Origin: a virus
Length of the DNA stretch: 64,000 bases
Reading direction: 5' to 3' (one strand)
IMG/VR virus record: IMGVR_UViG_3300045988_159115
In this document: positions 413 through 49,417 of the stretch, piece after piece
Numbering within the stretch: position 1 is the first letter of the stretch
Layout: every line of letters starts with the position of its first letter
Position numbers and translations under genes: made by a program
The notes under the pieces: generated by a model
What the model was told of the DNA's origin: nothing
What the model saw: the letters and a program-made list of their open reading frames with translations, nothing else
The model's database searches: none

Positions 413-3157
413 TTAGCCCTTATTCTCGTCGTTCTTAGGCTCATTATTGGACTCTTCGTTCTTGCCATTTTTGCCATTATCGGCATTCTCTTCTTCTTTA
501 GGCTTCTTTACGTCAGGAGCAAGCTTCTGGAGCTTATCCATGAAATCATAATACTTTGCCTCAGTGATAGTAAGAGTTGCACGAACGAATTCCTCAACTA
601 CCTTGGTGATTACCGTAGTAGTGGTCTGCTTTTCAGCATCATTCGTCTGTTGAGCAGTCTGCTGCTCAGGCTTCTGACCAGAATTATTGATCTCTTCCTG
701 CTTTTTAGCAGCTGCATCATTCAGCTCATCAAGATCTGCCTGAAGATCCTTGGAGAACTGCTCATAGCCTTCGCAATAATTTACCATCTCACGAATCTTA
801 CGAGAAGCAGCGCCACCAGAATAGGTAGGAAGCTTTACATCCGAAGCATTCGTGTTGTTGTAAATCATCCAATGGCGAACCTTCTCCTGGAAACCACCTT
901 TTCCAACACCAGTAACATTCGGAATATCTTTGAAGATAAACCGAGCTGTATTACTCTTTGTAGAAGTGAGCTGAGAAGGAAGAGCCTTTGCGTTAATACC
1001 ATTGATGACTGATGCTGCATGACCAATAATCTGAGAAAGATTATTCTGGTTCACGACTGTATACGGAGCCACAGTGATACTAACCTTAGAGCAGTCCATA
1101 TCAATAAGCTTAGGCTTAGCCTCTTCAAGCCATGCCTTATGCTTACCTGTGATACGGCGAGCCTTCTCAAGGAAGCCGTTAATCAGCTTCTTAATCATCT
1201 CAATAAATCTTTGGATGGCACCCTTGATACCATCGTCTTTATTGTCGCCATTCTTATTGGCGTTATTGTCATTGGCAGTCTTTGCGTTGGCACTAACAGA
1301 GACTTCGCCAGTGACACCGCCCTTATTGGCCTTCTCAGCTTCCTTATCCGGAGTATTACCACCATTAGCATCATCTGCCTCAAAGACAACGTTGACGCCA
1401 CGGTACTTCTTCTCCTTAGCAGAAGTATATTCCTTCATCAGACCGGTGAAGATATTCTTTTCTGCTTCCACAAGCTGAGCATACTCGATAATGAATGCGC
1501 CATAATCGTAGTCATACCATGCTTCAGGAATGATACTAGGATGAATATCATTTCCGTCGCCATAACCACGATCAGAGTCACACATAATGTGAGACAGGGA
1601 GTCAAGACGATCCATCAGTACACGAGCAACTGACAGGCAATAATCCTTATAAGCTCCACTGAGATTTTCCATAATCTCAATAGCTTCCTTATAGGTAGGA
1701 TCAGGCATCTTGCCAGAATTAAACTCGTAAGTCTTCTGAAGAGTTTCGATGTACTTCATGCAAGTACGAGCTGCAGTGCAGATCATTGCACAATTGTCTT
1801 CGAAACTGGAGATCTCGGCATAGAGTTCCTTAGTGGCTTCATCCGCCATATGGTTCGTCACAAGAGAATCATATGCGGAGATATCTCTTGCCTTATTGAG
1901 AACCTCAGCATAGCGTGTGACAAAAGATTGGTTAAGGCCAAGCTCATTCATCACATCATCCATGACGATATCACCGCTACGAATCTTCAGCTCAAACTGA
2001 TGAAGCTGATCTGCAATCATCAGAATCGAATTCTTCAGATTGAGATACGGAGACTTATCATAGTTCTGGCTATTGTTATCAATCGGATCAATCGCATTCG
2101 TCTTGATGTTGTAAATCTTTGCAGCAGCATTGGAAAGCTCGATTTTCTTCCAATTGATAATCTCTCGAATCTTAGGAAGAATGATAGAAAGATTATCATT
2201 CAGCATAGAATTCAGGAGATCAGCAGATTCGATGTCGTTGATATTCCCATCCATGACAGACTCATGGAGAACTGCCTGCGGATCCGGGAAGAATTCATTG
2301 ATCGCGTTGTAAAGATTCTGAATGGTACGCATATTATAGCTGTAATAGCCCATCTTACGAATAAGCATTGCAGACAGATATGCGCACAGGCTCATGTAAG
2401 TACGCTGGAAATTGAATGCAAAATACTTCACGGTATTTTCTGTCTTATAGTCAAGACTACCGGAAGAAATGACCTCATTCAGCGCTTCAATGGAAGCCTG
2501 CATATCATTCCTGGTTTGACCGAGTACAGCAATGGTACGAGTTGCAAGTCGATTCAGGAAATCAACATCAGACGGGAAAGACCGAATAAACGGAATTACA
2601 TTATTCATGAGGAATTCCGTATTGACCTTCACCATAGTAGGAGAATCGAGCTTCATCAGATCACGAGTATCATTGATGACAAGCGTGGTCTTAACCAGCT
2701 GCTTCTTTACTTTCTCCTTGTAAACAGAGGAGACAACCTCTTTATCAATGTCAGATTTCTTCTTCTTACCTGCAATAATATCACGACTATATGCATCAAA
2801 GAACTGAGGAACGAGAGCAAGATATTCGGGACGAATCTTCTCGATCTCATTAACATCCTGAAGAGCAATCGTGATATTCTTATCAGCAAGAGACTCTGAA
2901 GCATAGATGGTTGAGAAAAACGTATTAAGATACGAATAATCCATCGCACGCATTGCATTCAGATTTTCCGTACCTTTTGCAATATACTGGGAATAGATGG
3001 AGCCGTCTGCATAAGCAGAAGCTACCTTAAGATCCCACGTAGATCCTTCCGTAAGAACTGAGTTCATATTGGAAACGAAACTGCGTGATTCAAAATCCGT
3101 AAGTGCTTTCTTGTAGTCAAGCACGAACGAATTTAATACACGGAGACCGCTATCCAT
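413..3157 (-). CDS. large hypothetical (probably virion) protein carrying a C-terminal module of the helical paralog family
   Basis: 914-aa ORF with SD AAGGAGGG just upstream of the ATG at 3157. Residues ~640-670 (GAIQRFIEMIKKLINGFLEKARRITGK) match the amphipathic-helix signature of the paralog family. Has an N/K/D/G-rich low-complexity insert and tail. Confidence 0.8.
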   Translation of the reverse strand: MDSGLRVLNSFVLDYKKALTDFESRSFVSNMNSVLTEGSTWDLKVASAYADGSIYSQYIAKGTENLNAMRAMDYSYLNTFFSTIYASESLADKNITIALQDVNEIEKIRPEYLALVPQFFDAYSRDIIAGKKKKSDIDKEVVSSVYKEKVKKQLVKTTLVINDTRDLMKLDSPTMVKVNTEFLMNNVIPFIRSFPSDVDFLNRLATRTIAVLGQTRNDMQASIEALNEVISSGSLDYKTENTVKYFAFNFQRTYMSLCAYLSAMLIRKMGYYSYNMRTIQNLYNAINEFFPDPQAVLHESVMDGNINDIESADLLNSMLNDNLSIILPKIREIINWKKIELSNAAAKIYNIKTNAIDPIDNNSQNYDKSPYLNLKNSILMIADQLHQFELKIRSGDIVMDDVMNELGLNQSFVTRYAEVLNKARDISAYDSLVTNHMADEATKELYAEISSFEDNCAMICTAARTCMKYIETLQKTYEFNSGKMPDPTYKEAIEIMENLSGAYKDYCLSVARVLMDRLDSLSHIMCDSDRGYGDGNDIHPSIIPEAWYDYDYGAFIIEYAQLVEAEKNIFTGLMKEYTSAKEKKYRGVNVVFEADDANGGNTPDKEAEKANKGGVTGEVSVSANAKTANDNNANKNGDNKDDGIKGAIQRFIEMIKKLINGFLEKARRITGKHKAWLEEAKPKLIDMDCSKVSITVAPYTVVNQNNLSQIIGHAASVINGINAKALPSQLTSTKSNTARFIFKDIPNVTGVGKGGFQEKVRHWMIYNNTNASDVKLPTYSGGAASRKIREMVNYCEGYEQFSKDLQADLDELNDAAAKKQEEINNSGQKPEQQTAQQTNDAEKQTTTTVITKVVEEFVRATLTITEAKYYDFMDKLQKLAPDVKKPKEEENADNGKNGKNEESNNEPKNDENKG

Positions 3158-3171
3158 TGGATATCCCTCCT

Positions 3172-4389
3172 TTACGATCTTTTAATCTCAACAAATGCAG
3201 ACGGGGTTTTCACCTTGATAACTGTAGCAAGACGAAGGGCCGCTCTCTGATATGCAGGATCACTGTCAAGGCCGTCTTTACTTGTATGAAAATCGTCACA
3301 CTGACTCAGGAAATTTGAATAGTTTGCCTTCATGTCATCAAGACCATCTACGTAACTATAGAGATTATCCGAGATCGTTCGATATTTTGTAATATAATCC
3401 GCTCTAGCAGCGCTGTACTCTTTATCATCAGCATGCTTAATTGCGGCGTCAAGTAATGCAGATGCAGCACTATTATACGCTTTAACTGCATCAGCAGCAT
3501 CCTGCCTTGCCTTAGTATCAGCTTCAGAATTGACTTCATTCACAGCCGCATCTGTCTTCTTAGCTTGCTTCTTCAACTCAGCAGCTTTATTTTTCAACTC
3601 ATCTGCGGCTGCATCTTGCTCCTGATCAATACCTACGATAACTTTGAGAGCGTTCGTGAGAATTTTCACTTGCGTACTGATACTCTTTGGGTTTTTGCCG
3701 GCTTTGGTAGTAGCGTCCTTGATCTCTTCCGCGCTTTTACGAAGATCATCTGCCAGTTTTTTATTTTCGGTTCGAAAATTATTGATATTACTAGCAAGCT
3801 TCATAGCACCGCTAATGGTAAGTGATGCAATAGCAGCATTTTTAGCGCCGTTAACAAATTTCTTTGTTGCGTCGTTAAACTTTTCTATTGCACTTTCATT
3901 ATCAATCTTGCCCTGATCGAGCATATTGATCAGACCAACGATGTCGTTCTTATAAGCAGCAACGTCGTGCTTTGTGAACCATTCCTTCTTAATACCCTTC
4001 ACGATGGTATTCTTCAGTTCAGGATTCTCTGCAATGATCTTATTGACAGCCTTTGTATCGGCGTCAATATCTCGCTGCTTACCAGTAATGGCTGCACCGA
4101 TATCCTTAATGAAATCAGTGATCTTCTTGATAAGATCAGAGATTGCCTTACCGATCTTTGCAAAGAAATTATCTTCTGCAGTATCAGCTTTCTTCACAAT
4201 AGGATCCTTCTTCTTACCAAAAAGACTTGCTTCGAAGAAAGAATTAAGGTATGCATCCCGCTGACTCTTTCGGAGAAGGTAATCAGCTTCAATGCAAGCA
4301 CGTTCACATTCGTCGCATGCTTCGAAAACCAGGTCATACGTCAGATACTGATTAATGTACGACTGATCAGTTTTCACCATATTAAACAC
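3172..4389 (-). CDS. helical paralog family member A (function unknown)
   Basis: 405 aa, SD AAAGGAAGGTG. N-terminal acidic helix YDLVFEACDECERACIEADYLL, signature FFAKIGKAISDLIKKITDFIKDIGAAITGK, small-residue hydrophobic segment AKNAAIASLTISGAMKLA. Confidence 0.85.
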   Translation of the reverse strand: MFNMVKTDQSYINQYLTYDLVFEACDECERACIEADYLLRKSQRDAYLNSFFEASLFGKKKDPIVKKADTAEDNFFAKIGKAISDLIKKITDFIKDIGAAITGKQRDIDADTKAVNKIIAENPELKNTIVKGIKKEWFTKHDVAAYKNDIVGLINMLDQGKIDNESAIEKFNDATKKFVNGAKNAAIASLTISGAMKLASNINNFRTENKKLADDLRKSAEEIKDATTKAGKNPKSISTQVKILTNALKVIVGIDQEQDAAADELKNKAAELKKQAKKTDAAVNEVNSEADTKARQDAADAVKAYNSAASALLDAAIKHADDKEYSAARADYITKYRTISDNLYSYVDGLDDMKANYSNFLSQCDDFHTSKDGLDSDPAYQRAALRLATVIKVKTPSAFVEIKRS

Positions 4390-4445
4390 CTTCCTTTGTA
4401 TTAGATTTTGTTAGGAGTATTAAAGATGTGTTTTCACGCCATATC

Positions 4446-4628
4446 TTACGAGGCAATATCATTCCAAATAATCATCAGAGATATTCCTCGTTCTGAGTCA
4501 CTTACTTCTTCTTCACTGATATATGAGCATTTCATGCATCCATACCAGATGTCTATATATCCAGTTTTATTATTCAACTTACTACATTTATAAACTCTAT
4601 TGGATTTACACATGGGGCACTCTCTCAT
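4446..4628 (-). CDS. small Cys4 zinc-ribbon protein
   Basis: 60 aa with CPMC...(22)...CMKC. SD AAGGAG about 10 nt upstream of the ATG. Sits inside the paralog cluster. Confidence 0.6.
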   Translation of the reverse strand: MRECPMCKSNRVYKCSKLNNKTGYIDIWYGCMKCSYISEEEVSDSERGISLMIIWNDIAS

Positions 4629-4662
4629 AACACAGCCACTCCTTATTTTTTCGATGTGTGTA

Positions 4663-4711
4663 TTGATACATGAAGCACAAACGGCTTATACGAATGTGCT
4701 TCATGTATCAA
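4663..4711 (-). other. strong stem-loop without a U-run (processing, stability or attenuator element?)
   Basis: 16-bp perfect stem ttgatacatgaagcac / gtgcttcatgtatcaa in the spacer between 4789..5694 and 4446..4628. No T-run on either strand. Confidence 0.5.
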
Positions 4712-4788
4712 TGTAAGATTAGAATAGATTCTTAGCGTCTTTAGCAAAATCGTTTGCTTTACGCGCAGTATTTGCTCCTTGAATAGCT

Positions 4789-5694
4789 CTATGCATAAAA
4801 TCTGTCACTGACGATTTTTTTACCATCAGGATTTGCGCCATTCATAGCAGCATTGATCACGCCAGCATTCTTATAGACACCTTTCATAAAACTACCTTTT
4901 GTCACAGAAACATTACCAGCAGCATCTACTTTGAAGAACGAAGTGATATTATTGATAAGCCCCTGCCCAACAGCAACCAAATCTTTCTGCTTTCTGCAAA
5001 GAAGATTTACTTTCATTCGATGGAAGACGCCATCACGAGCGTAACTGTCGACCTTCTTCTTAAACTTTGCAGCTTCCTTATCACCAACAGAATCTGCAAT
5101 CGACTGAAGTAAGCCATTTTCAGATTCCAGAGCTTTCTGAATGGCTTTTGCTGCAACCATATTACGATCAGCAAGTTCAAGAGCAGCTTGAAGCGTCATC
5201 GTAGTAACTCCAGCAGATGCTCCACCCTTTGCCGCTTTCTTCAGATTTCGGAGGGTGCCATTCAATTCAGCCATTACAGCTTCTGCTTCATCAGCACTAC
5301 CACCGCTACGATAGATCTTATCAATGCGAGAGATAGCATTGTCGTACTGCTTTTCGTATTCCCTAAAGTCGGAAACACGAATCTTTTTTCCAGCATATCT
5401 CTTATCTTTTGCTGCCTTCTGCTTAAAAGCATTGAACTTGGCACGCTGATCTCTTGACATAAATGCTTCTTGAATGAAGTTCACTACAGCACCAATTGAA
5501 TTCTTTACCAGATTGATAAGAGACTGGATAGCGTTCTTAATCGCATTTAAAGCGCCACCACCAGCTTTTTCATTATTGGCATTTGCTTCTTTGGCTTTAT
5601 CCGTAGCTTCCATGATAGCATCGAGATCAGAGATTTCTACGTATTGATCAAGATAATCATATGCTTCTGCTAAGAAGAATAAAGATTCATCCAT
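4789..5694 (-). CDS. helical paralog family member B
   Basis: 301 aa, SD GAAAGGAAGG. N-terminus DESLFFLAEAYDYLDQYVEISDLDAIMEA, signature ALNAIKNAIQSLINLVKNSIGAVVNFIQEAF, hydrophobic segment GGASAGVTTMTLQAALELA. Confidence 0.85.
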   Translation of the reverse strand: MDESLFFLAEAYDYLDQYVEISDLDAIMEATDKAKEANANNEKAGGGALNAIKNAIQSLINLVKNSIGAVVNFIQEAFMSRDQRAKFNAFKQKAAKDKRYAGKKIRVSDFREYEKQYDNAISRIDKIYRSGGSADEAEAVMAELNGTLRNLKKAAKGGASAGVTTMTLQAALELADRNMVAAKAIQKALESENGLLQSIADSVGDKEAAKFKKKVDSYARDGVFHRMKVNLLCRKQKDLVAVGQGLINNITSFFKVDAAGNVSVTKGSFMKGVYKNAGVINAAMNGANPDGKKIVSDRFYA

Positions 5695-5722
5695 TTCAGA
5701 TGCCTTCCTTTCTTATAAAATA

Positions 5723-5766
5723 AACGTGAGTGAGTGACTAGAATATTTCTTTCACTCACTCACGTT
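5723..5766 (-). terminator. intrinsic terminator after 5776..6936
   Basis: 15-bp stem aacgtgagtgagtga / tcactcactcacgtt, followed on the minus strand by TATTTTAT. Confidence 0.75.
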
Positions 5767-5775
5767 ATGAGAGTT

Positions 5776-6936
5776 TTACAGAGTACGAATCTTGGACATC
5801 AGGCGATTCACTACAACATTATCGCTGTAGTCGTTGGTGGACTCGAAAGTCTCCACACCGGCCAGTGCAGCCAGATAATGATCAGACTCACACTGACTAC
5901 CACACTCCTCAGCGTCGCCGCCGAAATTTGTGTCGTCCAGAGTAGAATCATCGTCAGCATCCAGATCATCGTCATCATAGCCCAGACCAGAGGTCAGAGC
6001 ATCGTTACCGACAATACTGAATGCATCGTCAATATCAACATCCTCATTGGAAGAATCGTCAGAATCAAAGTTCTGCTTCTGCTTCATCAGCTCTTCCATC
6101 TTCTTATCGGACTCATCGGTTGACTCCTTGGTAACCTTATCAGGATTTTCCTTCTTAAAGCCACCAATAGCAGCAGAGATGCTGGTGATCATACCAGCAA
6201 CGCAGCGATGATAGTCGTTCTGTGCAGTCTTGCAGAAATGAACGATGGCGTTTGCAATCTGGTTTGCAACATTGGCGTTACCCTTAGTTGCATCCTTCTT
6301 AGCATCATCACATGCGGTAAGAGCAGTCTTCTCGTGATCCTTCAGAGTAGAATTGGCAACGCTGAGCAGCTTCTTTGCCTGAGAGATTGCGTCAGAGACA
6401 GTCATCTTGATCGCATTGGACGCACCGATGGTGTCCTCATGCTTATCATCATACTTCTTCACGACAGCTGCAACGTCATCCGCAGTAACTTCCTGATTAC
6501 CACGGAACTTTGCCAGAAGCTTATTGATAGACTTCATGGCATCGTCATACAGCTCGGTCTCGCTCTTATAGTTCTCGACCATGATCTTCTTATGAGAAAC
6601 CAGAGGCATCAGCTTAACCTTCTTCTCAAGAGCGTCAAGCTTACCATCCTGATTCACACGGTTCAGAAGATCCATCAGGCGATCACGGCAGTCGGAATAA
6701 AACTTCACGACAGCCTCACGGAGCTTATCCAGAGCCTTCTGAATATTCTCAACGAAATCACTCTCAGCTGCTTCGTACAGCATGGAGAGCTCATCATCAG
6801 TACCATGTTCCTTCATAACCTTCAGCTCAGCTTCACGAAGGTTAATGTTGTACTGACGATTGGCCGCTTCGGTAATAGCGTTCAGCTTCATCGAAGCGAT
6901 ATCAAAAGCACTATTGGCTTCAGTTAAGATACCCAT
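5776..6936 (-). CDS. helical paralog family member C (acidic C-terminus)
   Basis: 386 aa, SD AAGGAG. Signature SDFVENIQKALDKLREAVVKFYSDCRDRL, hydrophobic segment CVAGMITSISAAIGGF, D/E-rich tail. Confidence 0.85.
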   Translation of the reverse strand: MGILTEANSAFDIASMKLNAITEAANRQYNINLREAELKVMKEHGTDDELSMLYEAAESDFVENIQKALDKLREAVVKFYSDCRDRLMDLLNRVNQDGKLDALEKKVKLMPLVSHKKIMVENYKSETELYDDAMKSINKLLAKFRGNQEVTADDVAAVVKKYDDKHEDTIGASNAIKMTVSDAISQAKKLLSVANSTLKDHEKTALTACDDAKKDATKGNANVANQIANAIVHFCKTAQNDYHRCVAGMITSISAAIGGFKKENPDKVTKESTDESDKKMEELMKQKQNFDSDDSSNEDVDIDDAFSIVGNDALTSGLGYDDDDLDADDDSTLDDTNFGGDAEECGSQCESDHYLAALAGVETFESTNDYSDNVVVNRLMSKIRTL

Positions 6937-6971
6937 AGTATTACAACTCCTTTATCTTAGATTTAGTAGCT

Positions 6972-6995
6972 AAAACTTAGCTAATTGTTTTTTGG
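6972..6995 (-). promoter_or_regulatory. candidate phage promoter, class I (AACA-N6-TA core)
   Basis: Minus-sense CCAAAAAACAATTAGCTAAGTTTT. The TA lies ~42 nt upstream of the ATG at 6936. Confidence 0.55.
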
Positions 6996-7000
6996 CGGCA

Positions 7001-7975
7001 TTAATATGCGCCGTGATGATCAACGTTATACTTTCCAGCCTTCTGTCCAGAAGTCGCAAGCATTCCTTCGTACTTTTTGATCTGCGCATCAAGCTTAGCA
7101 ATCTTATGCTTAACCTGAGCTCGTCCAGCAGCATTATAAGCTTTAGAATAATTGCTATTATTCCCAAGGTTAGAAACACTGCGAATTGCAGACCTAACAA
7201 CTCCGTTTTGACTACGAAGACTGTTGCGCTGCTGCTTAAGGTTATTAAGTGTCTCAACAATTTGCTCGCGGGTCATACCGCCGACGTCGGCGGCATGCTT
7301 ATCGAGAGCATCCTGGTATTTCGGATCTGTGTTTGTACCAAGGATGCAAGAAACAACAGTACCAAGACGAGACATGATACCACTGTATTCCTTTACATAC
7401 TTCTTGGCGTCATCCATATTCTTACCAGCTTTTTCGCCTTCTTCGATCTGCTCCTTAAAACGGTTCAGATCATCATCGACAGTACCCATGTACTCTCGAA
7501 TAGCACGAATCGTATCACCAGCTGTGGACGCTTTCAGAATGAAATTACCAGCAGCTGTAGCTACGGCTGCACCAGCAGCAACTCCAGCAACAACACCTTT
7601 ATGACCAGTAAGGCACTGAGTAATCTGCTTAGCCAGATCCTTACCACGCTGCATCAAAGCTTTCGGATTGTGCTCAAGCTTGATGTCTTCCTTCGGAGCT
7701 TCTTCCAAAGGCTTACCGGTAATCTTAGAAATAAGATTTCGGACGAACTTCTGAATTGCTTCAATCATTCGAACGAAAATATTCTTCTTCTTACCGGTTG
7801 TCTCTTCTGCTTCAGCAAGATACAGCTCAGTGGCTTCTTCCATGATGGCATTTTCCAAAACCATCTTGTTATGAATTCGACGGAGATTCAGATCATGCTC
7901 AATGCAAGCCTGCTCATAAGCAACATCGAAATGCATCATCCGATTCTCAAATTCCAGAATAGTCATATCCGTCAT
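7001..7975 (-). CDS. helical paralog family member D
   Basis: 324 aa, SD AGGAGG. N-terminus ILEFENRMMHFDVAYEQACIEHDL, signature NIFVRMIEAIQKFVRNLISKITGK, Gly/Ala zipper-like segment GVVAGVAAGAAVATAAGNFIL. Confidence 0.85.
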   Translation of the reverse strand: MTDMTILEFENRMMHFDVAYEQACIEHDLNLRRIHNKMVLENAIMEEATELYLAEAEETTGKKKNIFVRMIEAIQKFVRNLISKITGKPLEEAPKEDIKLEHNPKALMQRGKDLAKQITQCLTGHKGVVAGVAAGAAVATAAGNFILKASTAGDTIRAIREYMGTVDDDLNRFKEQIEEGEKAGKNMDDAKKYVKEYSGIMSRLGTVVSCILGTNTDPKYQDALDKHAADVGGMTREQIVETLNNLKQQRNSLRSQNGVVRSAIRSVSNLGNNSNYSKAYNAAGRAQVKHKIAKLDAQIKKYEGMLATSGQKAGKYNVDHHGAY

Positions 7976-7990
7976 TGGGATTACCTCCTA

Positions 7991-9328
7991 TTACATAGAA
8001 TCAAGAATCTTCAGCATATCGTCGATACGCTCATCGTCCGACTTCAGGAAATAGCTTGTGTCAGACTTCGGCATCATATCGGTGCTCTCAAAGAACTGAG
8101 AGTATACCGTATCGTCATCAAGGTCTGAAGATGCTGACTCGGTCTTATGCCCAACACCAAGTCGATTTGCAACCTGGCTAAAAAGACCTTCTTTTGGAGC
8201 ATGTGAATCGTGAGGGATCTTATTCAGTGCGTCCCTAAGCTTTGCGATAATGGGAGAAGCTTCCTTAGGAGTTGCCTTGGAAATTGCTTCGTCGCAATCG
8301 CTAATAAAGCTTGTGCAATTGAATCCCTCAACATTGACGGTGCTAGAAATATCCTGAAGAGCAGTTTTCGCTGTTTCATACGGAGTTTTGAGACGAGTCT
8401 TAATTGCGTCAGTCTTAGCACCACAAAGCTGAGTGGTCTTACTGAGAAGAGTGTTTGCCTTAGCGTAAACATCGCTTGCAGACGCATTAGCCTTTTTCTC
8501 AGCGTCCTTAGCAGCTTTTGCCTCTTCATGCTTTTTCGCAGCAGCTTCGATATTCTTTCCAATACCAGGAATATGCTTACCAATTGATGTTGCGAAGCCA
8601 CTTACTTTTGTAGTCATAGATTGGAGGGTGCCCAGGATGCCGCCGAGATCGACACCGGTATTCTCAGCAATTGCCTCAGAAAAACGCTGAACGACCTTGG
8701 TAAAGTCGAATGCCTTGCGAATGCCATTTGCCACAGTACCAACAGTCACAACAGTTGCTGTAGGAATTGCAAACACCATCATGAGACTTGTGCACGCATC
8801 CAGAAAGCGATCAATGAGCGGAGTATGGTTCGTGTTATGAACACGCTGCTTGCCATAGTCAACCTTCAGATTAACCTTGATACCTTTCTTAGAAAGATTA
8901 TCAACGTCCTTCATCAGGCGCTTTGCGTAAGCAGGAGTCATAAGATTGGAACACTTATCCATTTCCTTAACTGCTTTATCGACATCAATAGGAGCCTTGA
9001 CACCCTGAGGGTTTGCTTCCTCAGCAGCCTTTACATCAGCTTCCTTCGGCTGAAGATTAAAGATTGCAGAGATGATGCCCTGAAGCCACTTGTAGAACTT
9101 ATCCCAAACCTGCTTGATCTTTGCTGTGAAATCGTTTGCTTCCTCAGTATACATCTGAGTCATAGCATCCATATCATAGTCTTCTGATTCGAACTTGAAA
9201 TCCAGATCAGCCAGATTCAGCTTATGAGTGGCATTTGCACTTTCGATCATGTAGTCGATATCAGCCATGACATTGTCTGCCTTGGCTTCCTCGATCTCCA
9301 TGACACGTGAATACTCACTAAAAGTCAT
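7991..9328 (-). CDS. helical paralog family member E
   Basis: 445 aa, SD AAGGAGG. N-terminus SRVMEIEEAKADNVMADIDYMIESA, signature DFTAKIKQVWDKFYKWLQGIISAIFNL, hydrophobic segment LMMVFAIPTATVVTVGTVANG. Confidence 0.85.
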   Translation of the reverse strand: MTFSEYSRVMEIEEAKADNVMADIDYMIESANATHKLNLADLDFKFESEDYDMDAMTQMYTEEANDFTAKIKQVWDKFYKWLQGIISAIFNLQPKEADVKAAEEANPQGVKAPIDVDKAVKEMDKCSNLMTPAYAKRLMKDVDNLSKKGIKVNLKVDYGKQRVHNTNHTPLIDRFLDACTSLMMVFAIPTATVVTVGTVANGIRKAFDFTKVVQRFSEAIAENTGVDLGGILGTLQSMTTKVSGFATSIGKHIPGIGKNIEAAAKKHEEAKAAKDAEKKANASASDVYAKANTLLSKTTQLCGAKTDAIKTRLKTPYETAKTALQDISSTVNVEGFNCTSFISDCDEAISKATPKEASPIIAKLRDALNKIPHDSHAPKEGLFSQVANRLGVGHKTESASSDLDDDTVYSQFFESTDMMPKSDTSYFLKSDDERIDDMLKILDSM

Positions 9329-9416: not shown

Positions 9417-9444
9417 AAACTTTAACTCATTGTTTTCAAGGCTA
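9417..9444 (-). promoter_or_regulatory. candidate phage promoter, class I
   Basis: Minus-sense AGCCTTGAAAACAATGAGTTAAAGTTTG, immediately downstream (minus sense) of terminator 9463-9506 and ~90 nt upstream of the ATG at 9328. Confidence 0.55.
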
Positions 9445-9513: not shown

Positions 9514-10224
9514 TTAGAAGATTTGATATTCCGGAGTTTCTTTCTTCGGAATGAAGTCAGAACCAGTACGATCCTTCATGCTGACAACGATCTGATGATA
9601 GGTATAAACGATCTTCATGATCATATCCATCAGGAAAGATGCAACGGATTGCATGTACATCGAAACACCAGATTCTTTCACATCGTTATACTTTGCAGAG
9701 AAAGAATCAAACGATGCTTTCATAGCGTCGATGTCAGTCTTCAGCTTCTCTTCGAATGCAACGAGATCGGAGATCATCTCCACGTTCTTCATGGCATCGT
9801 TCAGATTCATAGAATCATAAGACTCCATAAAAAAGATAGAATCGACGAACTTCTTGTCTCGCCCAATAACAGTATCCACTGTGGACACTGCGGATTCAAC
9901 GACAATGTCATCACTGTCAGTAAGAGATACAGTAGCCTCGCAAAACTCAAGCATACCAGGATAATAATCCATATACTTGGAATAAGCGATAGGAAGATCA
10001 ATTACTTCCACACGATTGAACGGATACGCATTCTCCTTGATCGCAGTATAGATTCTATGAATCTGATCTGCCTTATCAGAGAAAAATCCATCCAGAATAT
10101 TGATGGACTCCGTAATGAACCGATGCCCTGCATCGAACGAAGAACCATCCTTCTTACCATCCCAAATTTCGCATGACTCATCATACAGTGATTTCAGAGA
10201 GTCTTTCACATCTGTCCATTCCAT
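9514..10224 (-). CDS. hypothetical acidic protein
   Basis: 236 aa, SD AAAGGTGGGG. Follows 10239.. with a 14-nt spacer. No domain recognised. Confidence 0.75.
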   Translation of the reverse strand: MEWTDVKDSLKSLYDESCEIWDGKKDGSSFDAGHRFITESINILDGFFSDKADQIHRIYTAIKENAYPFNRVEVIDLPIAYSKYMDYYPGMLEFCEATVSLTDSDDIVVESAVSTVDTVIGRDKKFVDSIFFMESYDSMNLNDAMKNVEMISDLVAFEEKLKTDIDAMKASFDSFSAKYNDVKESGVSMYMQSVASFLMDMIMKIVYTYHQIVVSMKDRTGSDFIPKKETPEYQIF

Positions 10225-10238: not shown

Positions 10239-11258
10239 TTACAAAAGCTGGAGTGAAGAAGTGGAACCATTGTCTCCATGCTTCATGTTATCCAGCGTCA
10301 TGTACTTCGAATCATTTCGGATAGCAGCTTCACCAGCACTCATTGCCTTAGCATGAGTTACACGAAGCTTATCAGAGACGCGCAGGCAAAGATTCTTCAC
10401 CTTCTCCTGCTTCATCAGAATATCGGCTTTCTTTTCCTTTGAGAAATCAGAGTTTGCCTCAACAACGCTCTTATTCAGTTCAAGGAAATAAGCCTGCTGA
10501 GCAAGAGCATCGCTAATATTCGACTTGATATTATAGTACTGATAGACCAGTTCACGCATGACAGGAATAATTGCAAGTGCAACAGCAACCACAGCAGTAA
10601 CGCCAATTGCTGTATATGCACCAATGAAATTATCCTCACCGTCTTTCAGCATACCGTCGAGGAACTTTGCATACTGCATCTTCTTATTGACAGCGTTGTA
10701 CTTTGCAAGCTGATCAATGTAGAATGTGTTAGCGCGGTACTTCGTATTCTTCAGAGTGATCTTAATGGTAGCAGCATCAGGGCGCTTCACATAATCGACG
10801 AACTCATACAGAATCGTAGAAGTTGCCTGAACACATGCGTACACAAACGTATTGTACTCAAGCATCACGTACTCATTCTTCATCATAAAGCCCTTCTTAT
10901 ACAGAGGAGCCAGTTTCCGAATGTTGTTGATTGCTTCCTTCACTGTCATTACGTACTGCTGAACCTGCTTATTATTCAGATTCGACGCAAGTGCATTGAC
11001 ATTGTCAAGAACATCAATCATATTCTTGTAGCCTACGTATTTCTCAATATCACCAGCAGACACAGGGATATTGTCGAAATCAATATGAGCCTTTGAAATA
11101 ACGCTCATATACAGGCGCTCAAGATACTTACTCGTAACAGAAGAATTTGCATCTTCAAAATATGTGAGAACTTCACGTTCCTGACGCATTGTTGGGTGAT
11201 CAGTTCCACACAGAATACGCACAGACTCTTTTACGAGTCGCGGCTCAATCATCGCCAT
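10239..11258 (-). CDS. hypothetical protein with one central transmembrane-like helix
   Basis: The listed ORF starts at a TTG inside the SD (AAGGAGG). The ATG at 11258 (MAMIEPRL) has proper spacing. Hydrophobic segment IGAYTAIGVTAVVAVALAIIPVM. Confidence 0.75.
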   Translation of the reverse strand: MAMIEPRLVKESVRILCGTDHPTMRQEREVLTYFEDANSSVTSKYLERLYMSVISKAHIDFDNIPVSAGDIEKYVGYKNMIDVLDNVNALASNLNNKQVQQYVMTVKEAINNIRKLAPLYKKGFMMKNEYVMLEYNTFVYACVQATSTILYEFVDYVKRPDAATIKITLKNTKYRANTFYIDQLAKYNAVNKKMQYAKFLDGMLKDGEDNFIGAYTAIGVTAVVAVALAIIPVMRELVYQYYNIKSNISDALAQQAYFLELNKSVVEANSDFSKEKKADILMKQEKVKNLCLRVSDKLRVTHAKAMSAGEAAIRNDSKYMTLDNMKHGDNGSTSSLQLL

Positions 11259-11291
11259 TGTTATAACCTCCTTATTCAAAATTTTTATATA

Positions 11292-12647
11292 TTAGTGACT
11301 GATCATGCGGGTGAGCTCTCTGCCGATCTTATTGGAATTCATCGTAACTTCACGTTCCAGTGATTCGAGGGCATACGTCTCAAATGTATTATTCCCATCA
11401 TAGAGAATATCAACAGTACGATTGCCGTCATCGACAATGATGAATGTCATAAGGAAGAGAGACCGCATCATCGGAACTGCAAACTTCGGATTCCGAAGAT
11501 CATAGCCGGTCTTATTCTTGATCAGGTCTGCTTCATAACCGTTAATGACAACGGTTGCCTGAGGAACCAGCTGAGTACGACTCATCGTAGCCATCTGAGC
11601 CTTTGCAGTAGAACGCATACGCTTCAGAGTATTCCACCAAGGAGATGCACCCATTGAACGGTTTGCAACATCCAGTTTCACATCGTTGATATGGAGCAGA
11701 AGATCCTTAACCAGAGACTTCTCGCCGGTCGTCCAACGAATAAAGTTAAAGAGAACGCCACGATTCTGCATGGTATTCGTAAGATTCACAATCATTTCAT
11801 CCGAATGGACAGAATGGAGAATCACCTTAATACCAACGACGAAATCGACGAACTGGACAAACTCCTCCTCGTCATTGATTGCAGAAAGACGAACCTGCAT
11901 CATGTAAGGCTGCATGTCGTTCTGCTTCTTCACGTCGTTATCCTTCAGAAGCTGAGGCACGGTCTTATTGAAACTCTGCTTATACTTTTCCTTATCCAGA
12001 TCATTTGCAGCACGATAGCGATCGAACTGCATGTCTGTGATCTTCTTATTCATATAATCAGAATCGACTTCTGCCTCACGAGCATAGAACGGATTATTAC
12101 CGACATTCGGGATCGGAGAATAATCCAGATCCTTCAGAGCAGAACTCATCTGAGCCTTATGGGATTCAAAAATAGCCTTCGGGAACTTTTCAGAGAAATT
12201 GAAAGCAAGAATCTGACCGGTTGACTCATTGATATATGCCTTAGTAGAGCCATCATAGATACGAGCAAAAAGAGCATCGTAGTCCGGATCCGGTTCCACG
12301 CAGTTTTCAAGATAGGTATCAATTGCGGTAGACTCGAGCTTCACGTTCTTATGAAAACGCTGAATATACTGATTCACATCCTTATAGTCAGCGATATTCA
12401 TGATATTTTGGGTAGAAAGATAGGTCTGCACAAAAGACGCATACACTCGTTCCATAGTCTTTGCAAGTGTGCTGGCCATATCAATGGGAATAGAATCACT
12501 AATCAGGCAAGGAAACTGCATTGTCGTGTCCATCGCGCCACGAGCAAAACTCTTACGAACCATCTGATTACTCACATGGGTAACATCTGCCCCGACACGG
12601 CCGGCATCACGAACAGCAGCAATGATATCACTAATCGGTGATGACAT
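11292..12647 (-). CDS. hypothetical protein (first gene of a class-I-promoter-driven, presumably structural, operon)
   Basis: The listed start is a GTG. The ATG at 12647 (MSSPISD) follows AGGTGG. 451 aa, no domain recognised. Confidence 0.75.
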   Translation of the reverse strand: MSSPISDIIAAVRDAGRVGADVTHVSNQMVRKSFARGAMDTTMQFPCLISDSIPIDMASTLAKTMERVYASFVQTYLSTQNIMNIADYKDVNQYIQRFHKNVKLESTAIDTYLENCVEPDPDYDALFARIYDGSTKAYINESTGQILAFNFSEKFPKAIFESHKAQMSSALKDLDYSPIPNVGNNPFYAREAEVDSDYMNKKITDMQFDRYRAANDLDKEKYKQSFNKTVPQLLKDNDVKKQNDMQPYMMQVRLSAINDEEEFVQFVDFVVGIKVILHSVHSDEMIVNLTNTMQNRGVLFNFIRWTTGEKSLVKDLLLHINDVKLDVANRSMGASPWWNTLKRMRSTAKAQMATMSRTQLVPQATVVINGYEADLIKNKTGYDLRNPKFAVPMMRSLFLMTFIIVDDGNRTVDILYDGNNTFETYALESLEREVTMNSNKIGRELTRMISH

Positions 12648-12701
12648 ACATACCACCTGTCCTTTCTCTCATGAATTTAGTTTTAGCCTTAGATTCCTAT
12701 T

Positions 12702-12730
12702 GGAAAACTTACCTAATTGTTTTTAGGTGC
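12702..12730 (-). promoter_or_regulatory. candidate phage promoter, class I
   Basis: Minus-sense GCACCTAAAAACAATTAGGTAAGTTTTCC, just downstream (minus sense) of terminator 12761-12807 and ~60 nt upstream of the ATG at 12647. Confidence 0.6.
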
Positions 12731-14842: not shown

Positions 14843-14871
14843 AATCATATCCTCCAAAACGCGTTTATTAT

Positions 14872-14911: not shown

Positions 14912-14994
14912 ATTCATTACTTTGATCTATTACACGCAATCAAAGTTTTTAAGTAACTCTATTGATCAGAATGTATGCTTACACTCTATAGAAA

Positions 14995-28797: not shown

Positions 28798-29628
28798 TCA
28801 CAGTGCAATTGCAACGACAATAAGAGCAAGTGTTGCAAACGGATGTTTTGCCATAGTACGAAGAATTGCTTTGATAACTGATGAAAGTTGATTGCAGAAT
28901 CCAATAATTGCAGAATTCTTCATGGAGAAAAGACTTGCATCCTTATCACTCAGGTCAACATAGGAAGTTCCCATATCTCGCTTATGATATTCGCTCTTCA
29001 TATCAGAGATCATTTTGTCTCCATATGCATGAGCGAGCTTCAAGTTCTTCTTATAGTTCTGGGCCTCATCTTCTGTCATATGAATTGCAGAATTCACAGA
29101 GACAGAGAGTTTCCACTGCTCTTCGTCTGTCAGCTTATAGTTGAAATCAGCAAGATCGTTCTGCATCTTATCTCGCCACTCTTCATACTCTTCAAATGAC
29201 TTAAATTCCCGAGCACTCATCTTCTTGATCTCAGCAGTATATCGGTCAATAAAGTCAGTATAAAACTTCTTATACTTGGCCATATCGAAAATGCTGATAT
29301 TATGATTAAGAAGCTCGGAACGATCTTTTGCCATGACAGACTTAATTTCGGCAAGACGCTCATTCAGCTTCTTTGCTTCGATCCGAGCACTCATCTCGGT
29401 AATCAAGTTGGTTGTAAAATCTGACAGAGCATCCAGAATCTTCTGAATCGCCGAAATAAATGCTTCGCGAAGATCTTCAGCATCTTCAGTATATACTGAC
29501 ATGTAGTCAAAGTCATCACAGTGCTCATAATATGAAATCAGGAACTGTGAGTTCGCAGCTTCAAATTCTGCAACAGCTTTTTCGCAATCCAGATCAAATT
29601 TCTTTGAACTGATCAAATATGCATTCAT
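28798..29628 (-). CDS. helical paralog family member F (isolated copy)
   Basis: The ATG at 29628 (MNAYLIS) has better spacing from AAAGGAG than the ATG at 29637. N-terminus FDLDCEKAVAEFEAANSQFLISYYEH, signature AFISAIQKILDALSDFTTNLITEM, C-terminal AKHPFATLALIVVAIAL. Confidence 0.85.
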   Translation of the reverse strand: MNAYLISSKKFDLDCEKAVAEFEAANSQFLISYYEHCDDFDYMSVYTEDAEDLREAFISAIQKILDALSDFTTNLITEMSARIEAKKLNERLAEIKSVMAKDRSELLNHNISIFDMAKYKKFYTDFIDRYTAEIKKMSAREFKSFEEYEEWRDKMQNDLADFNYKLTDEEQWKLSVSVNSAIHMTEDEAQNYKKNLKLAHAYGDKMISDMKSEYHKRDMGTSYVDLSDKDASLFSMKNSAIIGFCNQLSSVIKAILRTMAKHPFATLALIVVAIAL

Positions 29629-29659
29629 CTTGATCATCTCCTTTACTATAGAGTTACTA

Positions 29660-29687
29660 GAGGCTTAATGGTTTGTTTTCTGACCAT
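29660..29687 (-). promoter_or_regulatory. candidate phage promoter, class I
   Basis: Minus-sense ATGGTCAGAAAACAAACCATTAAGCCTC, directly after terminator 29701-29738 and ~40 nt upstream of the start codon. Confidence 0.55.
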
Positions 29688-47366: not shown

Positions 47367-47394
47367 GTAAACTTAGGGAATTGTTTCAGGGTGG
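47367..47394 (-). promoter_or_regulatory. candidate phage promoter, class I
   Basis: Minus-sense CCACCCTGAAACAATTCCCTAAGTTTAC, ~40 nt upstream of the ATG at 47333. Confidence 0.55.
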
Positions 47395-47452
47395 GTACTT
47401 ACATTATATTAATTCTACGAATAATACATAGAGAAAGGAGGTTATCACATTG

Positions 47453-48490
47453 ATGGATAGTTACTTTCTCGAGTTTGACCTTGAATGTGAAAAGGCCGAT
47501 TACCTCTATGAATGTGCTTATGATAAGTTCATGATTGATGTAACGGAAGTTCACAATAAGGTCAAACTTGGGTATTTTAACGAATCATCAAACGATGCAT
47601 CCTTTATGCTTGAGGAAGCTGGAAAGTCGTTCGTTGACTCTATCAAGGCGTTCTTCGGTAAGATTCTTAACGGGATTAAGACTCTCGTTAAGAAAGTTAC
47701 CGGTGCGATCAAGACTAAGTTCAACCAGATCACTGCTTCCGGAAAGCTGAAGAATGTCGAACAGGCTCTTGTCACAAACAAAGAGCTTGCTGGTCAAAAA
47801 ATCAAAATCACCGATCGTGCGAAGTATATCGCCGCATACGATGATTATGTGAAAGCCGCTGTTGCTGGTGTACGCAAGCTTCAGACTACCCAGTATAAAA
47901 ACGCTGATGAATACAAGAAGGCTCAGGATGAACTTTCTGAGAAGCTTCAAGGTATCATCAAGAGTTGGAATCTGGATGGTTCTGACGTACGGCAGTTAAA
48001 CATCGGCATTGCTGATGCTGTAAAGCTCAGTAATAAAGAGATCAAGGATTTCGACAAGAATATGTCCGAAATCCAGGGGAAATGGACAGATACAATTGGC
48101 ATTCTCCAAAAATGTGCTCTCAATGAAGACGATCCTTCTAAGATCGGATTCATTAAGAGCATCACAAACCAATTCAATAGCGTGTCGTCCAAAGCGTACA
48201 ACTATTGTGCGAAGCATCCCGCTCAAATTGTCGCAGCAACCTTAACTGCATCTGCAGCTGCTGCAGGTGGCGTTGCTGTAAATAAAGCATACTGGAAGGG
48301 CGAAGGCCAACAAAGAATCCTTAAGAAAGATAATGAAGAGCGCGCAAAGAGAGGAGAAAAAACTCTCGAGACACCTGCAAAAAACACTTTTTGGGGAAAA
48401 GTAGTTGACGGCGCCCGGGGAATAACTGCAGGCATAAATCAAGCTACTGGCATAAAAGAAGACAATGATTTATGGAGAGATTTAATTTAA
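47453..48490 (+). CDS. helical paralog family member H
   Basis: ATG at 47453 (a TTG at 47450 is also possible) after AAGGAGG. N-terminus YFLEFDLECEKADYLYECAYDKFMIDV, signature SFVDSIKAFFGKILNGIKTLVKKVTGAIKTKF, then AKHPAQIVAATLTASAAAAGGVAV. Confidence 0.85.
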   Translation: MDSYFLEFDLECEKADYLYECAYDKFMIDVTEVHNKVKLGYFNESSNDASFMLEEAGKSFVDSIKAFFGKILNGIKTLVKKVTGAIKTKFNQITASGKLKNVEQALVTNKELAGQKIKITDRAKYIAAYDDYVKAAVAGVRKLQTTQYKNADEYKKAQDELSEKLQGIIKSWNLDGSDVRQLNIGIADAVKLSNKEIKDFDKNMSEIQGKWTDTIGILQKCALNEDDPSKIGFIKSITNQFNSVSSKAYNYCAKHPAQIVAATLTASAAAAGGVAVNKAYWKGEGQQRILKKDNEERAKRGEKTLETPAKNTFWGKVVDGARGITAGINQATGIKEDNDLWRDLI

Positions 48491-48523: not shown

Positions 48524-49417
48524 ATGACTAATCTTGAATTTGCAATCTGCGAAGCAGAAAATTCTGGCGAGATTACCATGTCTGATCGAGACTTCCTTCT
48601 CGATTACATTTCTGAGAAGTTCTCCAATCCGATCGCATCAGTTAAGTCTAAGCTTAACGCCAAGAAAGAAATGAATTCAGCAAAGGCTGCCATGCGCAAG
48701 GGCATTGCTGCTGAAACCCCCAAGGATCAGATTAAGGGCCTTACCGCTGAGAAAAATGCGCGCCTCGACAATCTTTATTTCCGTGCAGCATACAATATCG
48801 CGCTGTATCACGAAGCACTCAAGAAGATCTACAGCATGTCCGTTAGTGACGCCGCTGACGACGAGGCTGCATCTGGTAGCAAGAATACTAAGGTTGTCTC
48901 ACAGATTCTGACCAACAACCTTACTAAGGCAAATGAGCGTATCAAAGCCCAGCTTGCTGCTCTGGAGACTGAAGAGCAGAATATCACGAAGGGTACAGCT
49001 GCTCTCATTAAGCATATTCGCGAGGCGGCTGCCGGCAAGCTTCAGACAACAATTTCAAACGTTGCCTCCGCCTTTAAGAACGCCATTAAGGCTGGATGGG
49101 CATGGGCAAAAACGCACTTTGGCAAACTCATTCCTCACATCCATAAGAAGAATCTTTCTAAGGATCAGCAGGAAAAGCTGGAGGATGCTGAGGAGAAGGT
49201 TGCTGAGACTCCGGAAGCCGCAAGTGATGCAAAGGGCGGCGATGCAAAGGCTGAAGTTACACCTGAGTCTGTTCGCATGGACATCTATGATGCTGAGCTG
49301 AATGGCCAGATCACTGTTGAGGAGCGCGTCGCTCTTATCAATGAGCTCGACGAGCGTCTCGCATCTTATCAGGAGTCTTATGAGGATCCCGAGGCCGCAT
49401 TTGCAGATCTTCTGTAA
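48524..49417 (+). CDS. helical protein, subfamily TNL(E/D)F..EA..SG (related to the paralog family)
   Basis: 297 aa, SD AAGGAG. N-terminus MTNLEFAICEAENSGEITMSD matches 49975..51261. Ala/Lys-rich helices, acidic C-terminus. Confidence 0.8.
   Translation: MTNLEFAICEAENSGEITMSDRDFLLDYISEKFSNPIASVKSKLNAKKEMNSAKAAMRKGIAAETPKDQIKGLTAEKNARLDNLYFRAAYNIALYHEALKKIYSMSVSDAADDEAASGSKNTKVVSQILTNNLTKANERIKAQLAALETEEQNITKGTAALIKHIREAAAGKLQTTISNVASAFKNAIKAGWAWAKTHFGKLIPHIHKKNLSKDQQEKLEDAEEKVAETPEAASDAKGGDAKAEVTPESVRMDIYDAELNGQITVEERVALINELDERLASYQESYEDPEAAFADLL

Follow-up and report, generated by a model that had tools for sequence, protein, structure and literature searches.

Jumbo phages that bring RNA polymerases of their own also carry many other proteins in their particles, and what these do as infection begins is largely obscure. 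In phiKZ and SPN3US, paralogs of the family PF12699 (gp92-95, 97, 162 and 163 in phiKZ; gp53 and gp54 in SPN3US) are abundant head proteins that are cleaved after A/S/G-x-E and injected (PMC5694885, PMC10052503). These are the main injected proteins of phiKZ, where they associate with an early lipid compartment. The internal proteins of T4 (IPI-III and Alt) are targeted to the prohead core, trimmed after Glu by a gp21-type protease and ejected with the DNA (PMC5694885). AR9-like jumbo phages are described as being without a pseudo-nucleus (PMC7598289). Here, eight genes in a 64,000-nucleotide stretch of viral DNA (IMG/VR record IMGVR_UViG_3300045988_159115; the whole stretch is called the window) are shown to encode one real, fast-evolving family of helical proteins with a common N-terminal fold of about 160-260 amino acids (aa). 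The best structural matches of this fold lead to virion proteins of phage AR9. The reading that we favour, at a probability of roughly 0.55, is that the family is expressed late, packaged in the virion and the counterpart, in the AR9 branch, of the phiKZ internal head proteins.

The window is without a close cultured relative, and megablast of the region against cultured phages gave no match. A fragment of a multisubunit RNA polymerase beta' subunit (24344-26449) is 27-29% identical to its counterparts in AR9, PBS1 (Bacillus), Staphylococcus jumbo phages and the Yersinia phage phiR1-37. In addition, ENA, Logan and IMG/VR assemblies contain near-identical and sister contigs of 250-263 kb. The polymerase and the size of these related contigs therefore place the window in an uncultured, AR9-like jumbo phage.

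The family and its common fold

The five tandem open reading frames that the initial annotation had grouped as cluster 1 are present on the minus strand between 3172 and 9328. Together with an isolated copy and two genes of a second cluster, they make up the eight confirmed members (Table 1), which occupy ~9.0 kb or 14% of the window. All-against-all BLASTP of these proteins yields a web of weak matches that are in register at the N-terminus, for example 47450-48490 to 28798-29637 (1e-15) and to 5776-6936 (6e-9), and 7001-7975 to 7991-9328 (1e-5). When a hidden Markov model (HMM) search was iterated within the window proteome, it settled on just those genes that the initial annotation had named, less the 914-aa protein at 413-3157. 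In a leave-one-out HMM test against reversed and locally shuffled decoys, eight of the nine candidate members outscore every decoy. The exception is 3172-4389, which reaches 8.1 bits against decoys of up to 10.5. One locally shuffled member reached 17 bits, showing that scores below ~17 bits are obtainable from local composition alone. As a result of this decoy and of the marginal score of 3172-4389, evidence was sought from sequences outside the window.

The first 160 residues of the eight paralogs were made into a profile, with which 1.84 billion cluster representatives were searched in full. This search recovered 866 clusters (50% identity) at E ≤ 1e-3, including 248 at E ≤ 1e-10. The match is N-terminal in all 150 of the matches listed, the proteins are mostly 270-790 aa long and each of the 10 clusters looked up has members on metagenome contigs of 200-278 kb. 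An HMM built from outside sequences (rep.hmm) gives the eight window genes 50-166 bits and no decoy more than 12. When the family profile was restricted to outside sequences, excluding those of the window and their close orthologs, hhalign placed the eight members at E values of 5e-40 to 4e-5, followed by the next window proteins at 0.014 and 0.025. Here, the membership of 3172-4389 is clear. The conserved residues of the profile are position-specific and include E25, I33, N34, K41, E45, G47, D51, A59, F81, P113 and K119.

These results bear on one alternative, which is that the likeness is purely compositional, reflects a Lys/Ala/Glu coiled-coil bias and defines no family. Pairwise identities of just 15-25% and the 17-bit shuffled decoy would fit such an artefact. 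It would not produce end-to-end, in-register, N-terminal matches in 866 clusters, nor the gap between members and decoys, the clean separation of members from other window proteins by hhalign, position-specific conservation or a confidently predicted fold. The compositional explanation is vanishingly improbable and is excluded by the profile comparisons and the predicted fold. The homology proposed by the initial annotation is thus real, although two of its genes are not confirmed as sharing in it: the 914-aa protein, which it had called a fused copy and which is treated below, and 48524-49417, whose membership is unconfirmed. The latter was recruited by the iterative HMM within the window only. 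A further candidate, 49975-51261, was rejected as not significant (hhalign P 0.014). The C-termini of 49975-51261 (..MAESAVDDMKAIFDV) and 48524-49417 (..YQESYEDPEAAFADLL) resemble, by eye, the C-terminal motif ES(T/A)FDxLM described below; a position-specific scoring matrix (PSSM) gives this no support, and neither protein has the N-terminal domain.

Existing libraries do not name the family. Scans of the members against Pfam, PHROGs and NCBIfam returned no family model and sub-threshold coiled-coil noise only, and a profile search of PDB sequences returned only CesA-type coiled coils (E ≥ 4e-4). Searches of cultured phages by tblastn with 47450-48490, with 5776-6936 at an E limit of 10 and with the family consensus gave nothing usable. 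The possibility that the N-terminal domain is a delivery tag fused to enzymes was considered and rejected, as the 10 longest relatives carry no Pfam domain at E ≤ 0.01. One relative, P0212 (793 aa, JGI/IMG, on a contig of up to 278 kb), bears the source name "Zn-dependent protease with chaperone function", which was probably assigned automatically on weak grounds, as no Pfam domain is seen in it at E ≤ 0.01.

The fold was modelled with AlphaFold2, using a 136-sequence family alignment for 5776-6936. The model has a mean predicted local distance difference test (pLDDT) score of 82, a predicted template-modelling score of 0.71 and pLDDT above 90 over residues 1-260, which form the helical domain. 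Two long helices (residues 2-42 and 47-96) are followed by shorter helices, a two-strand sheet (117-121 and 175-179) and long return helices that extend to residue 258. Beyond the domain lie a disordered acidic region (292-371) and a terminal helix (374-385) that contains ...VNRLMSKIRTL. The model of 7991-9328 (pLDDT 74) has the same topology. The predicted architecture is thus an acidic helix 1 of ~45 aa and an amphipathic helix 2, both inside a helical bundle of ~260 aa with a small two-strand sheet. Past the domain come a helical stretch that varies, a disordered acidic linker and, in ~40% of relatives, a C-terminal peptide that is conserved. The acidic and amphipathic helices described in the initial annotation are borne out: the first 60 residues of members have an isoelectric point (pI) of 4.0-4.7, and the amphipathic helix is the best-conserved stretch of the family profile.

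The small-residue hydrophobic segment, which had been ascribed to the family as a whole, is present in 7001-7975, 7991-9328, 28798-29637, 45771-47333 and 47450-48490 (Kyte-Doolittle hydropathy averaged over 19 residues, KD19, of 1.5-1.9) and is weak in the other members. In the model of 7991-9328 it forms a helix end and the second strand of the sheet, where it pairs with E110-112. Outside the window the segment is stronger. Among 139 relatives, 94 reach a KD19 of at least 1.5 beyond residue 160; the usual place is residues 174-193, and values of 2.0-2.5 are common. In typical relatives, a transmembrane-like segment of 19-20 aa rich in Gly, Ala, Thr and Val replaces the second strand and flanking helix; it takes the form xIGxGAAxTxTVxAAIAxI, is flanked by HGK and KK and stands directly after the domain. 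The C-terminal peptide, ES(T/A)FDxLMxxIDxL(F), occurs in 54 of the 139 relatives and in 0.4% of shuffled tails. Within the window it is retained, as judged by the PSSM, only by 5776-6936 (score 8.4, with a 99th-percentile null of 0.8) and by 7991-9328, where it reads ...IDDMLKILDSM.

The family evolves rapidly. In the sister lineage its orthologs are 33-56% identical, in comparison to 74-80% for the neighbouring homologs of AR9 g214 and g215. Strains were compared at loci whose flanking structural genes are 97-99% identical (L001, L003-L006, L008-L012 and L015). Inside this clade, 4789-5694 and 5776-6936 are steady at 92-99%, while identity ranges over 68-97% for 3172-4389, 64-94% for 7001-7975 and 45-96% for 7991-9328, the member most variable between strains, whose neighbouring genes are at 97-99%. 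Allele replacement is visible at individual loci: 7991-9328 falls to 45-53% in L005, L011 and L012, 7001-7975 to 64% in L005 and 3172-4389 to 68% in L012 and L015. Two genes that are not in the family, 13859-14917 and 14995-16080, are variable too (73-97%).

Relatives among AR9 virion proteins and late promoter motifs

When the model of 5776-6936 was compared to BFVD using Foldseek, the first match was A0A141HSG3 (E 1e-6, probability 1.00, template-modelling (TM) scores of 0.41 and 0.42 by query and target length). By length and position this entry is gp272 of phage BpSp, an ortholog of AR9 g216 at the syntenic position. The third match was A0A172JI05, which is AR9 g096, "Virion protein" (E 8.8e-4, probability 1.00, TM 0.39 and 0.52). 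The family thus has the fold of g216- and g096-type proteins. Further matches are to unnamed entries and to uncultured myoviruses. Some of the unnamed entries (Q4VYA7 and G4KKD6) may be from phiR1-37, as suggested by their accessions alone; neither was found in the first 61 kb of the phiR1-37 genome.

Sequence profiles point the same way for g096, which the family HMM matches in register at 22.5 bits (decoys at most 12; hhalign P 1.2e-4). AR9 itself contains two paralog pairs, g096 with g166 (3e-8) and g216 with g217 (1e-7). Reading of these four sequences shows that (L/M)-x-E is kept at the end of helix 1 in all of them. As in the family, the AR9 proteins (g216 and g217, phrog_26049 and phrog_29947; g096 and g166, phrog_18338) have an N-terminal helix ending in (L/M)-x-E, an amphipathic Lys-rich helix and a short "KKVxIxD"-like strand. 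They differ in being without an obvious strong transmembrane segment or the ES(T/A)FDxLM motif, as read from their sequences, although g216 does have an acidic C-terminal tail. In sequence, their similarity to the family lies at the limit of detection or under it. Four such genes were identified in AR9, whereas the window alone has eight. In PHROG scans of six of the eight window members and six typical relatives, the profiles phrog_26049 and phrog_18338 gave no match, and 45771-47333 matched no PHROG whatever at E ≤ 0.001.

Position in the genome is conserved as well. In AR9, g216 and g217 stand directly after g214 and g215. In the window, cluster 1 is directly downstream of the g214 and g215 homologs, with one extra gene (9514-10224) between. 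The g214 homolog matches AR9 g214 at 5e-17 by tblastn and 3e-23 by blastp, and the g215 homolog, which is the anchor directly upstream of cluster 1, has a strong transmembrane segment of its own (KD19 2.41). When homologs of g214 and g215 were sought in IMG/VR and a metagenome collection, only lineages at 98-99% or ~74-81% identity were recovered and none more distant.

In the AR9 record (KU878088), both g216 and g096 bear the annotation of virion protein. Of the 43 AR9 virion proteins, 41 are products of late genes, and the named exceptions are g084 and g215 rather than g216 or g096 (PMC5312081). For phage BpSp, 23 structural proteins are reported. As the distant relatives in AR9 are virion proteins, the family itself is probably packaged. 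The initial suggestion of virion association is therefore strengthened in this respect, by an ortholog of one AR9 virion protein and by a second one, g096, as the best structural matches, and by the HMM score of the latter.

Promoter motifs are consistent with late expression. The late promoter consensus of AR9 is A(-11)ACA-N6-T-A/G(+1) (PMC7598289). The upstream regions of family genes have in common the motif GAAAACAAT-N-TAAG, which contains this consensus. Searched as RAAACA-N6-TAA (extended form CCTGAAAACAAT..TAAG), it has 11 matches in the window, where 1.7 are expected and 100 shuffles gave at most 5. All 11 lie upstream of a gene and in the orientation of that gene. Five precede family genes, and three more precede the g214 homolog, whose copy is at 12709-12723, and two genes with PHROG "virion structural protein" matches. 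This distribution points to expression late in infection, alongside the structural genes. Sigma-70-like promoters are not enriched in the window (26 with 29.5 expected). Since the motif contains the AR9 late consensus, the non-virion RNA polymerase of the phage probably shares the promoter specificity of AR9; by analogy, it may possibly share the requirement for uracil-containing DNA. Within cluster 1, the interval 5695-5775, between 5776-6936 and 4789-5694, has a perfect 12-bp inverted repeat (GTGAGTGAGTGA ... TCACTCACTCAC) with a 14-nt loop, followed by TTTATTTT. From its sequence, the repeat resembles an intrinsic terminator; a limit on loop length kept the terminator scan from reporting it.

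Late expression is shared by an alternative in which these are non-virion membrane proteins, acting, for example, in lysis timing, superinfection exclusion or membrane remodelling, and in which the AR9 virion relatives are contaminants or belong to another branch. A strong, single transmembrane-like helix with basic flanks in most relatives would fit such a role, as would rapid diversification at a host interface, and AR9 g217 and g166 are indeed annotated as hypothetical and not as virion proteins. We consider it very unlikely. Of the AR9 relatives, two independent ones are virion proteins. The family genes lie together with homologs of virion structural genes and have a promoter motif in common with them, and the conserved, soluble fold of 260 aa puts the hydrophobic element inside the bundle.

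Comparison with internal head proteins, candidate cleavage sites and possible membrane insertion

The initial annotation had compared the family to the internal head proteins of phiKZ. Using hhalign, the profile of the N-terminal domain aligns to eight PF12699 sequences (gp92-95 and four homologs) with a score of 34.2, a P of 3.8e-4 and a probability of 36%. The alignment has 97 colinear columns and joins family positions 49-147 to gp93 residues 155-270. The score is above all 31 controls, of which the reversed profile reached 23.8 and the 30 local shuffles at most 16.2. Single phiKZ proteins align to the family at P 0.016-0.9. Separately, AR9 g096 matches the internal head protein family phrog_6807 at E 0.006. 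A Pfam scan of the eight members, 413-3157 and 49975-51261 (E ≤ 0.1) found no PF12699, nor did one of 10 long relatives (E ≤ 0.01). The analogy thus gains weak profile support, without Pfam-level membership, and the link read from these profiles is suggestive only. The family is probably a lineage-specific expansion in AR9/PBS1-like jumbo phages and possibly a very remote relative of PF12699.

The two families also resemble each other in organization. Both comprise tandem paralogs of variable copy number in jumbo phages that encode multisubunit RNA polymerases, and in both an N-terminal region leads, through a site with Glu at P1, into a conserved, amphipathic, Lys-rich helix. They differ in that the propeptides are ~125-155 aa in PF12699 and would be ~45-60 aa here, if cleaved, and in that the top 50 structural matches, several of which are nameless, include no entry named as a phiKZ-like protein. 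The window family is further marked by its transmembrane-like segment and its C-terminal motif; to our knowledge, neither has been described for PF12699.

The likeness is closest around the Glu. In phiKZ gp92-95, S-x-E is invariant just before the amphipathic helix, and the aligned part of gp93 begins there. In SPN3US gp53, the maturation site is AQE-125 (PMC5694885) and the first mature peptide is GWKETLKDLFER (PMC10052503). At the equivalent place the family consensus reads A-x-E-G-F-V-E-K-I-K-K. Motifs of this kind are frequent among relatives: [LIMV]xE with P3 at profile position 43 occurs in 71% and at position 55 in 55%, [ASG]xE with P3 at position 59 occurs in 32%, and 82% have at least one of the three. 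In the model, positions 43-45 form the loop between helices 1 and 2. As read from these sequences, the Glu-P1 motifs where helix 1 meets helix 2 would suit a prohead protease of the gp21 type that takes off the acidic helix, as the initial annotation had supposed. To the internal proteins of T4, which the initial annotation had also invoked, the likeness is in concept alone, with no similarity in sequence or structure. The T4 targeting sequences are 10-19 aa long, as opposed to a 45-aa helix inside the fold, and the T4 proteins are without a transmembrane segment.

Plentiful Glu-P1 motifs could also belong to proteins of the prohead scaffold or core, which would dock to the interior of the capsid or portal by means of the C-terminal peptide, give order to the very large prohead and be largely degraded or expelled at maturation. 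The C-terminal amphipathic peptide resembles the capsid-binding C-terminal ends of scaffolding proteins, and its conservation, the bundles of long helices, the acidic disordered linkers, the late promoter motif and the lack of any other recognisable scaffold gene in the window all suit this explanation. It is nonetheless unlikely. The AR9 homologs g216 and g096 are found in mature virions, a strong transmembrane-like segment such as most relatives have is not normal for scaffolds and at least eight rapidly diversifying paralogs with allelic replacement would be unusual for them.

A place in the tail must also be weighed, either in the lumen, in a tape-measure-like role or as an accessory of the baseplate hub, with the hydrophobic segments opening a membrane channel at the tail tip. 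In AR9, the tape measure gene g204 is followed ~9 kb further downstream by the g214-g217 block, the transmembrane-like segments are compatible with such a channel and there are weak matches to tail and tape-measure PHROGs, phrog_1204 (E 1e-4) and phrog_788 (1.5e-3), as well as a match of the relative P0114 to tape-measure PHROGs (5e-6). These tail matches fall within helical stretches rich in Lys and Glu and score far below the family's own signal. Internal head proteins (PF12699 and phrog_6807) provide the best profile link. Moreover, at least eight paralogs of 280-520 aa do not suit the stoichiometry of a tail lumen, and a tail location is quite unlikely.

If the family is packaged in the virion, as we favour, a route can be proposed. 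The genes would be transcribed late by the non-virion RNA polymerase of the phage, and the proteins would enter the prohead using the C-terminal peptide, helix 1 or both as an address. A prohead protease of the T4 gp21 type would then trim them at the Glu-P1 sites of the helix 1/helix 2 junction. Carried in the virion, they would be released with the DNA, and the formerly buried hydrophobic element would insert in the host membrane to help form or line an entry conduit or an early membrane-associated compartment. By analogy with the injected proteins of phiKZ, the family proteins are perhaps ejected and membrane-active. The idea of membrane insertion, raised in the initial annotation, is strengthened because typical relatives have a strong transmembrane-like segment (KD19 2.0-2.5) right after the domain.

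Structural comparison offers one lead for how this may work. Foldseek against PDB gave no significant match for either model, and ClyA-family alpha-pore-forming toxins (PaxB, XaxB, AhlB, SmhB and ClyA) recur among the top matches of both. The likeness lies in an elongated helical bundle in which a hydrophobic element, the beta-tongue or hairpin of the toxins, is held inside a soluble fold. These matches are non-significant (E ≥ 0.036, TM ≤ 0.25, rmsd, the root-mean-square deviation, >20 A), and superposition on PaxB and XaxB gave E 0.05-0.12 and TM 0.14-0.17, which does not place the family among the ClyA toxins. A ClyA-type soluble bundle that hides a hydrophobic element is, on these models, a mechanistic lead only and not a relationship. 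A more speculative reading, which we hold to be doubtful, would make the family a new class of virion-delivered soluble bundles that hide a glycine-zipper-like transmembrane element much as alpha-pore-forming toxins do, are primed when the prohead protease removes helix 1, build a membrane conduit or an early membrane-bound compartment after ejection and are linked to the injected PF12699 proteins. Paralog expansion and strain-level allele replacement may then reflect an arms race with the host envelope or defences.

Several points weigh against packaging and what would follow from it. In sequence, none of the members resembles a protein of any cultured phage. The AR9 link combines structure prediction, synteny and marginal profile scores; g216 itself reaches just 7.7 bits and an hhalign P of 0.013-0.016, where its profile, with only three homologs, left P at 0.013. 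The AR9 label "virion protein" does not distinguish head from tail, and BpSp gp272 is labelled "hypothetical protein", the label of virion structural protein being that of its neighbour gp269. With a probability of 36% and no match of the Pfam model at E ≤ 0.1, the link to PF12699 falls in a grey zone. The candidate cleavage motifs, being short, may have a structural origin instead. Finally, the hydrophobic segments of several window members are weak, and in both models the segment belongs to the folded bundle.

Neighbouring genes and wider meaning

The 914-aa protein at the end of cluster 1 had been read as a fusion with a family copy. This is not the case, as its scores against family HMMs are negative and its sole likeness to the family is one helix of 28 columns, which scores 25.6 in hhalign where 20 local shuffles gave at most 16.5. 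The distant lineage L021 has a 1220-aa homolog of the same protein (14371-18033, E 2e-44) after its own tandem of five or six family genes, and the 914-aa protein is thus a conserved neighbour rather than a fusion. It is a conserved partner with one copy of the family helix-2 motif. No match to it was found in PHROG, Pfam or NCBIfam, or in cultured phages by tblastn.

On the other side of cluster 1, the extra gene 9514-10224, for which AR9 has no gene at that place, encodes an acidic protein of 236 aa (pI 4.4). It is 97-99% conserved inside the clade and ~46-52% in the sister lineage, and has no family match. A role as, for example, a chaperone of the hydrophobic paralogs would be pure speculation. 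A 1132-aa homolog of AR9 g212 (E 3e-29) is encoded at 53533-56931. In AR9, g212 adjoins g213 and g214, and gene order around the cluster is therefore rearranged in comparison to AR9. Elsewhere, 35183-37246 encodes a 687-aa protein whose match to a phage "chaperonin GroEL" PHROG is limited to the first 350 residues; AR9 encodes a GroEL too. The 531-aa product of 62080-63675 has a PHROG match that is lytic-enzyme- or tape-measure-like. A second paralog pair is formed by 51689-53500 and 60149-61999 (PHROG "virion structural protein"), which have in common an N-terminal region of 118 aa (38% identity, E 3e-15).

Table 1. Positions of family members, neighbouring genes and promoter motifs in the window
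Feature	Position	Strand	Evidence
Member nearest the family consensus, 386 aa	5776..6936	-	hhalign E 5e-40 over 260 columns
Member, 445 aa, hydrophobic segment aa 182-200	7991..9328	-	rep.hmm 50.7 bits; hhalign E 4e-5
Member, 324 aa, Gly/Ala-rich hydrophobic segment aa 128-146	7001..7975	-	rep.hmm 64.8 bits; hhalign E 5e-7
Member, 301 aa, shortened helix 1	4789..5694	-	rep.hmm 62.3 bits; hhalign E 2e-10
Member, 405 aa, weakest in within-window comparisons	3172..4389	-	rep.hmm 62.0 bits; hhalign E 2e-7
Isolated member, 279 aa, hydrophobic C-terminus	28798..29637	-	blastp to 47450-48490 1e-15; hhalign E 8e-18; KD19 1.71 at aa 261
Cluster-2 member, 520 aa	45771..47333	-	rep.hmm 96 bits; hhalign E 9e-15
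Cluster-2 member, 346 aa, transcribed divergently from 45771-47333	47450..48490	+	rep.hmm 122 bits; hhalign E 3e-24
Candidate divergent relative, without N-terminal domain	48524..49417	+	rep.hmm 8.5 bits; hhalign P 0.025
Hydrophobic segment LMMVFAIPTATVVTVGTVA of 7991-9328 (aa 182-200)	8729..8785	-	KD19 1.92
Hydrophobic segment VVAGVAAGAAVATAAGNFI of 7001-7975	7538..7594	-	KD19 1.74
Conserved 914-aa neighbour at the end of cluster 1, not a member	413..3157	-	-9 to -10 bits with family HMMs
Helix of the 914-aa protein (aa 643-672), amphipathic and like family helix 2	1142..1231	-	hhalign 25.6, P 0.0026, 28 columns
Homolog of AR9 g215 virion protein	10239..11279	-	phrog_23545 4e-21; blastp to AR9 g215 5e-18
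Homolog of AR9 g214 minor virion structural protein	11292..12656	-	phrog_23804 1.5e-29; second syntenic anchor
Late promoter motif of AR9 type (AACA-N6-TA), upstream of 7991-9328	9422..9436	-	
Same late promoter motif, upstream of 5776-6936	6977..6991	-	
Same late promoter motif, upstream of 3172-4389	4420..4434	-	
Same late promoter motif, upstream of 28798-29637	29665..29679	-	
Same late promoter motif, upstream of 45771-47333	47373..47387	-	
Other copies of the motif	12709-12723, 20245-20259, 41884-41898, 51652-51666, 56917-56931, 62057-62071		

The analysis thus delimits a large family of 866 clusters, with several copies per genome and no name in the libraries searched, which is the apparent equivalent, in the AR9/PBS1-like branch and its abundant uncultured phages, of the phiKZ set. 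The embedded transmembrane-like element, the C-terminal peptide as a possible packaging address and the clustered candidate protease sites are features that invite experiment. As AR9, whose host is Bacillus subtilis, has four recognisable relatives, the hypotheses of packaging, processing, ejection and membrane insertion can be tested in a culturable phage for which proteomic and transcript data exist. If the link to PF12699 is true, the internal or ejected proteins of both branches of jumbo phages would derive from one ancestral module.

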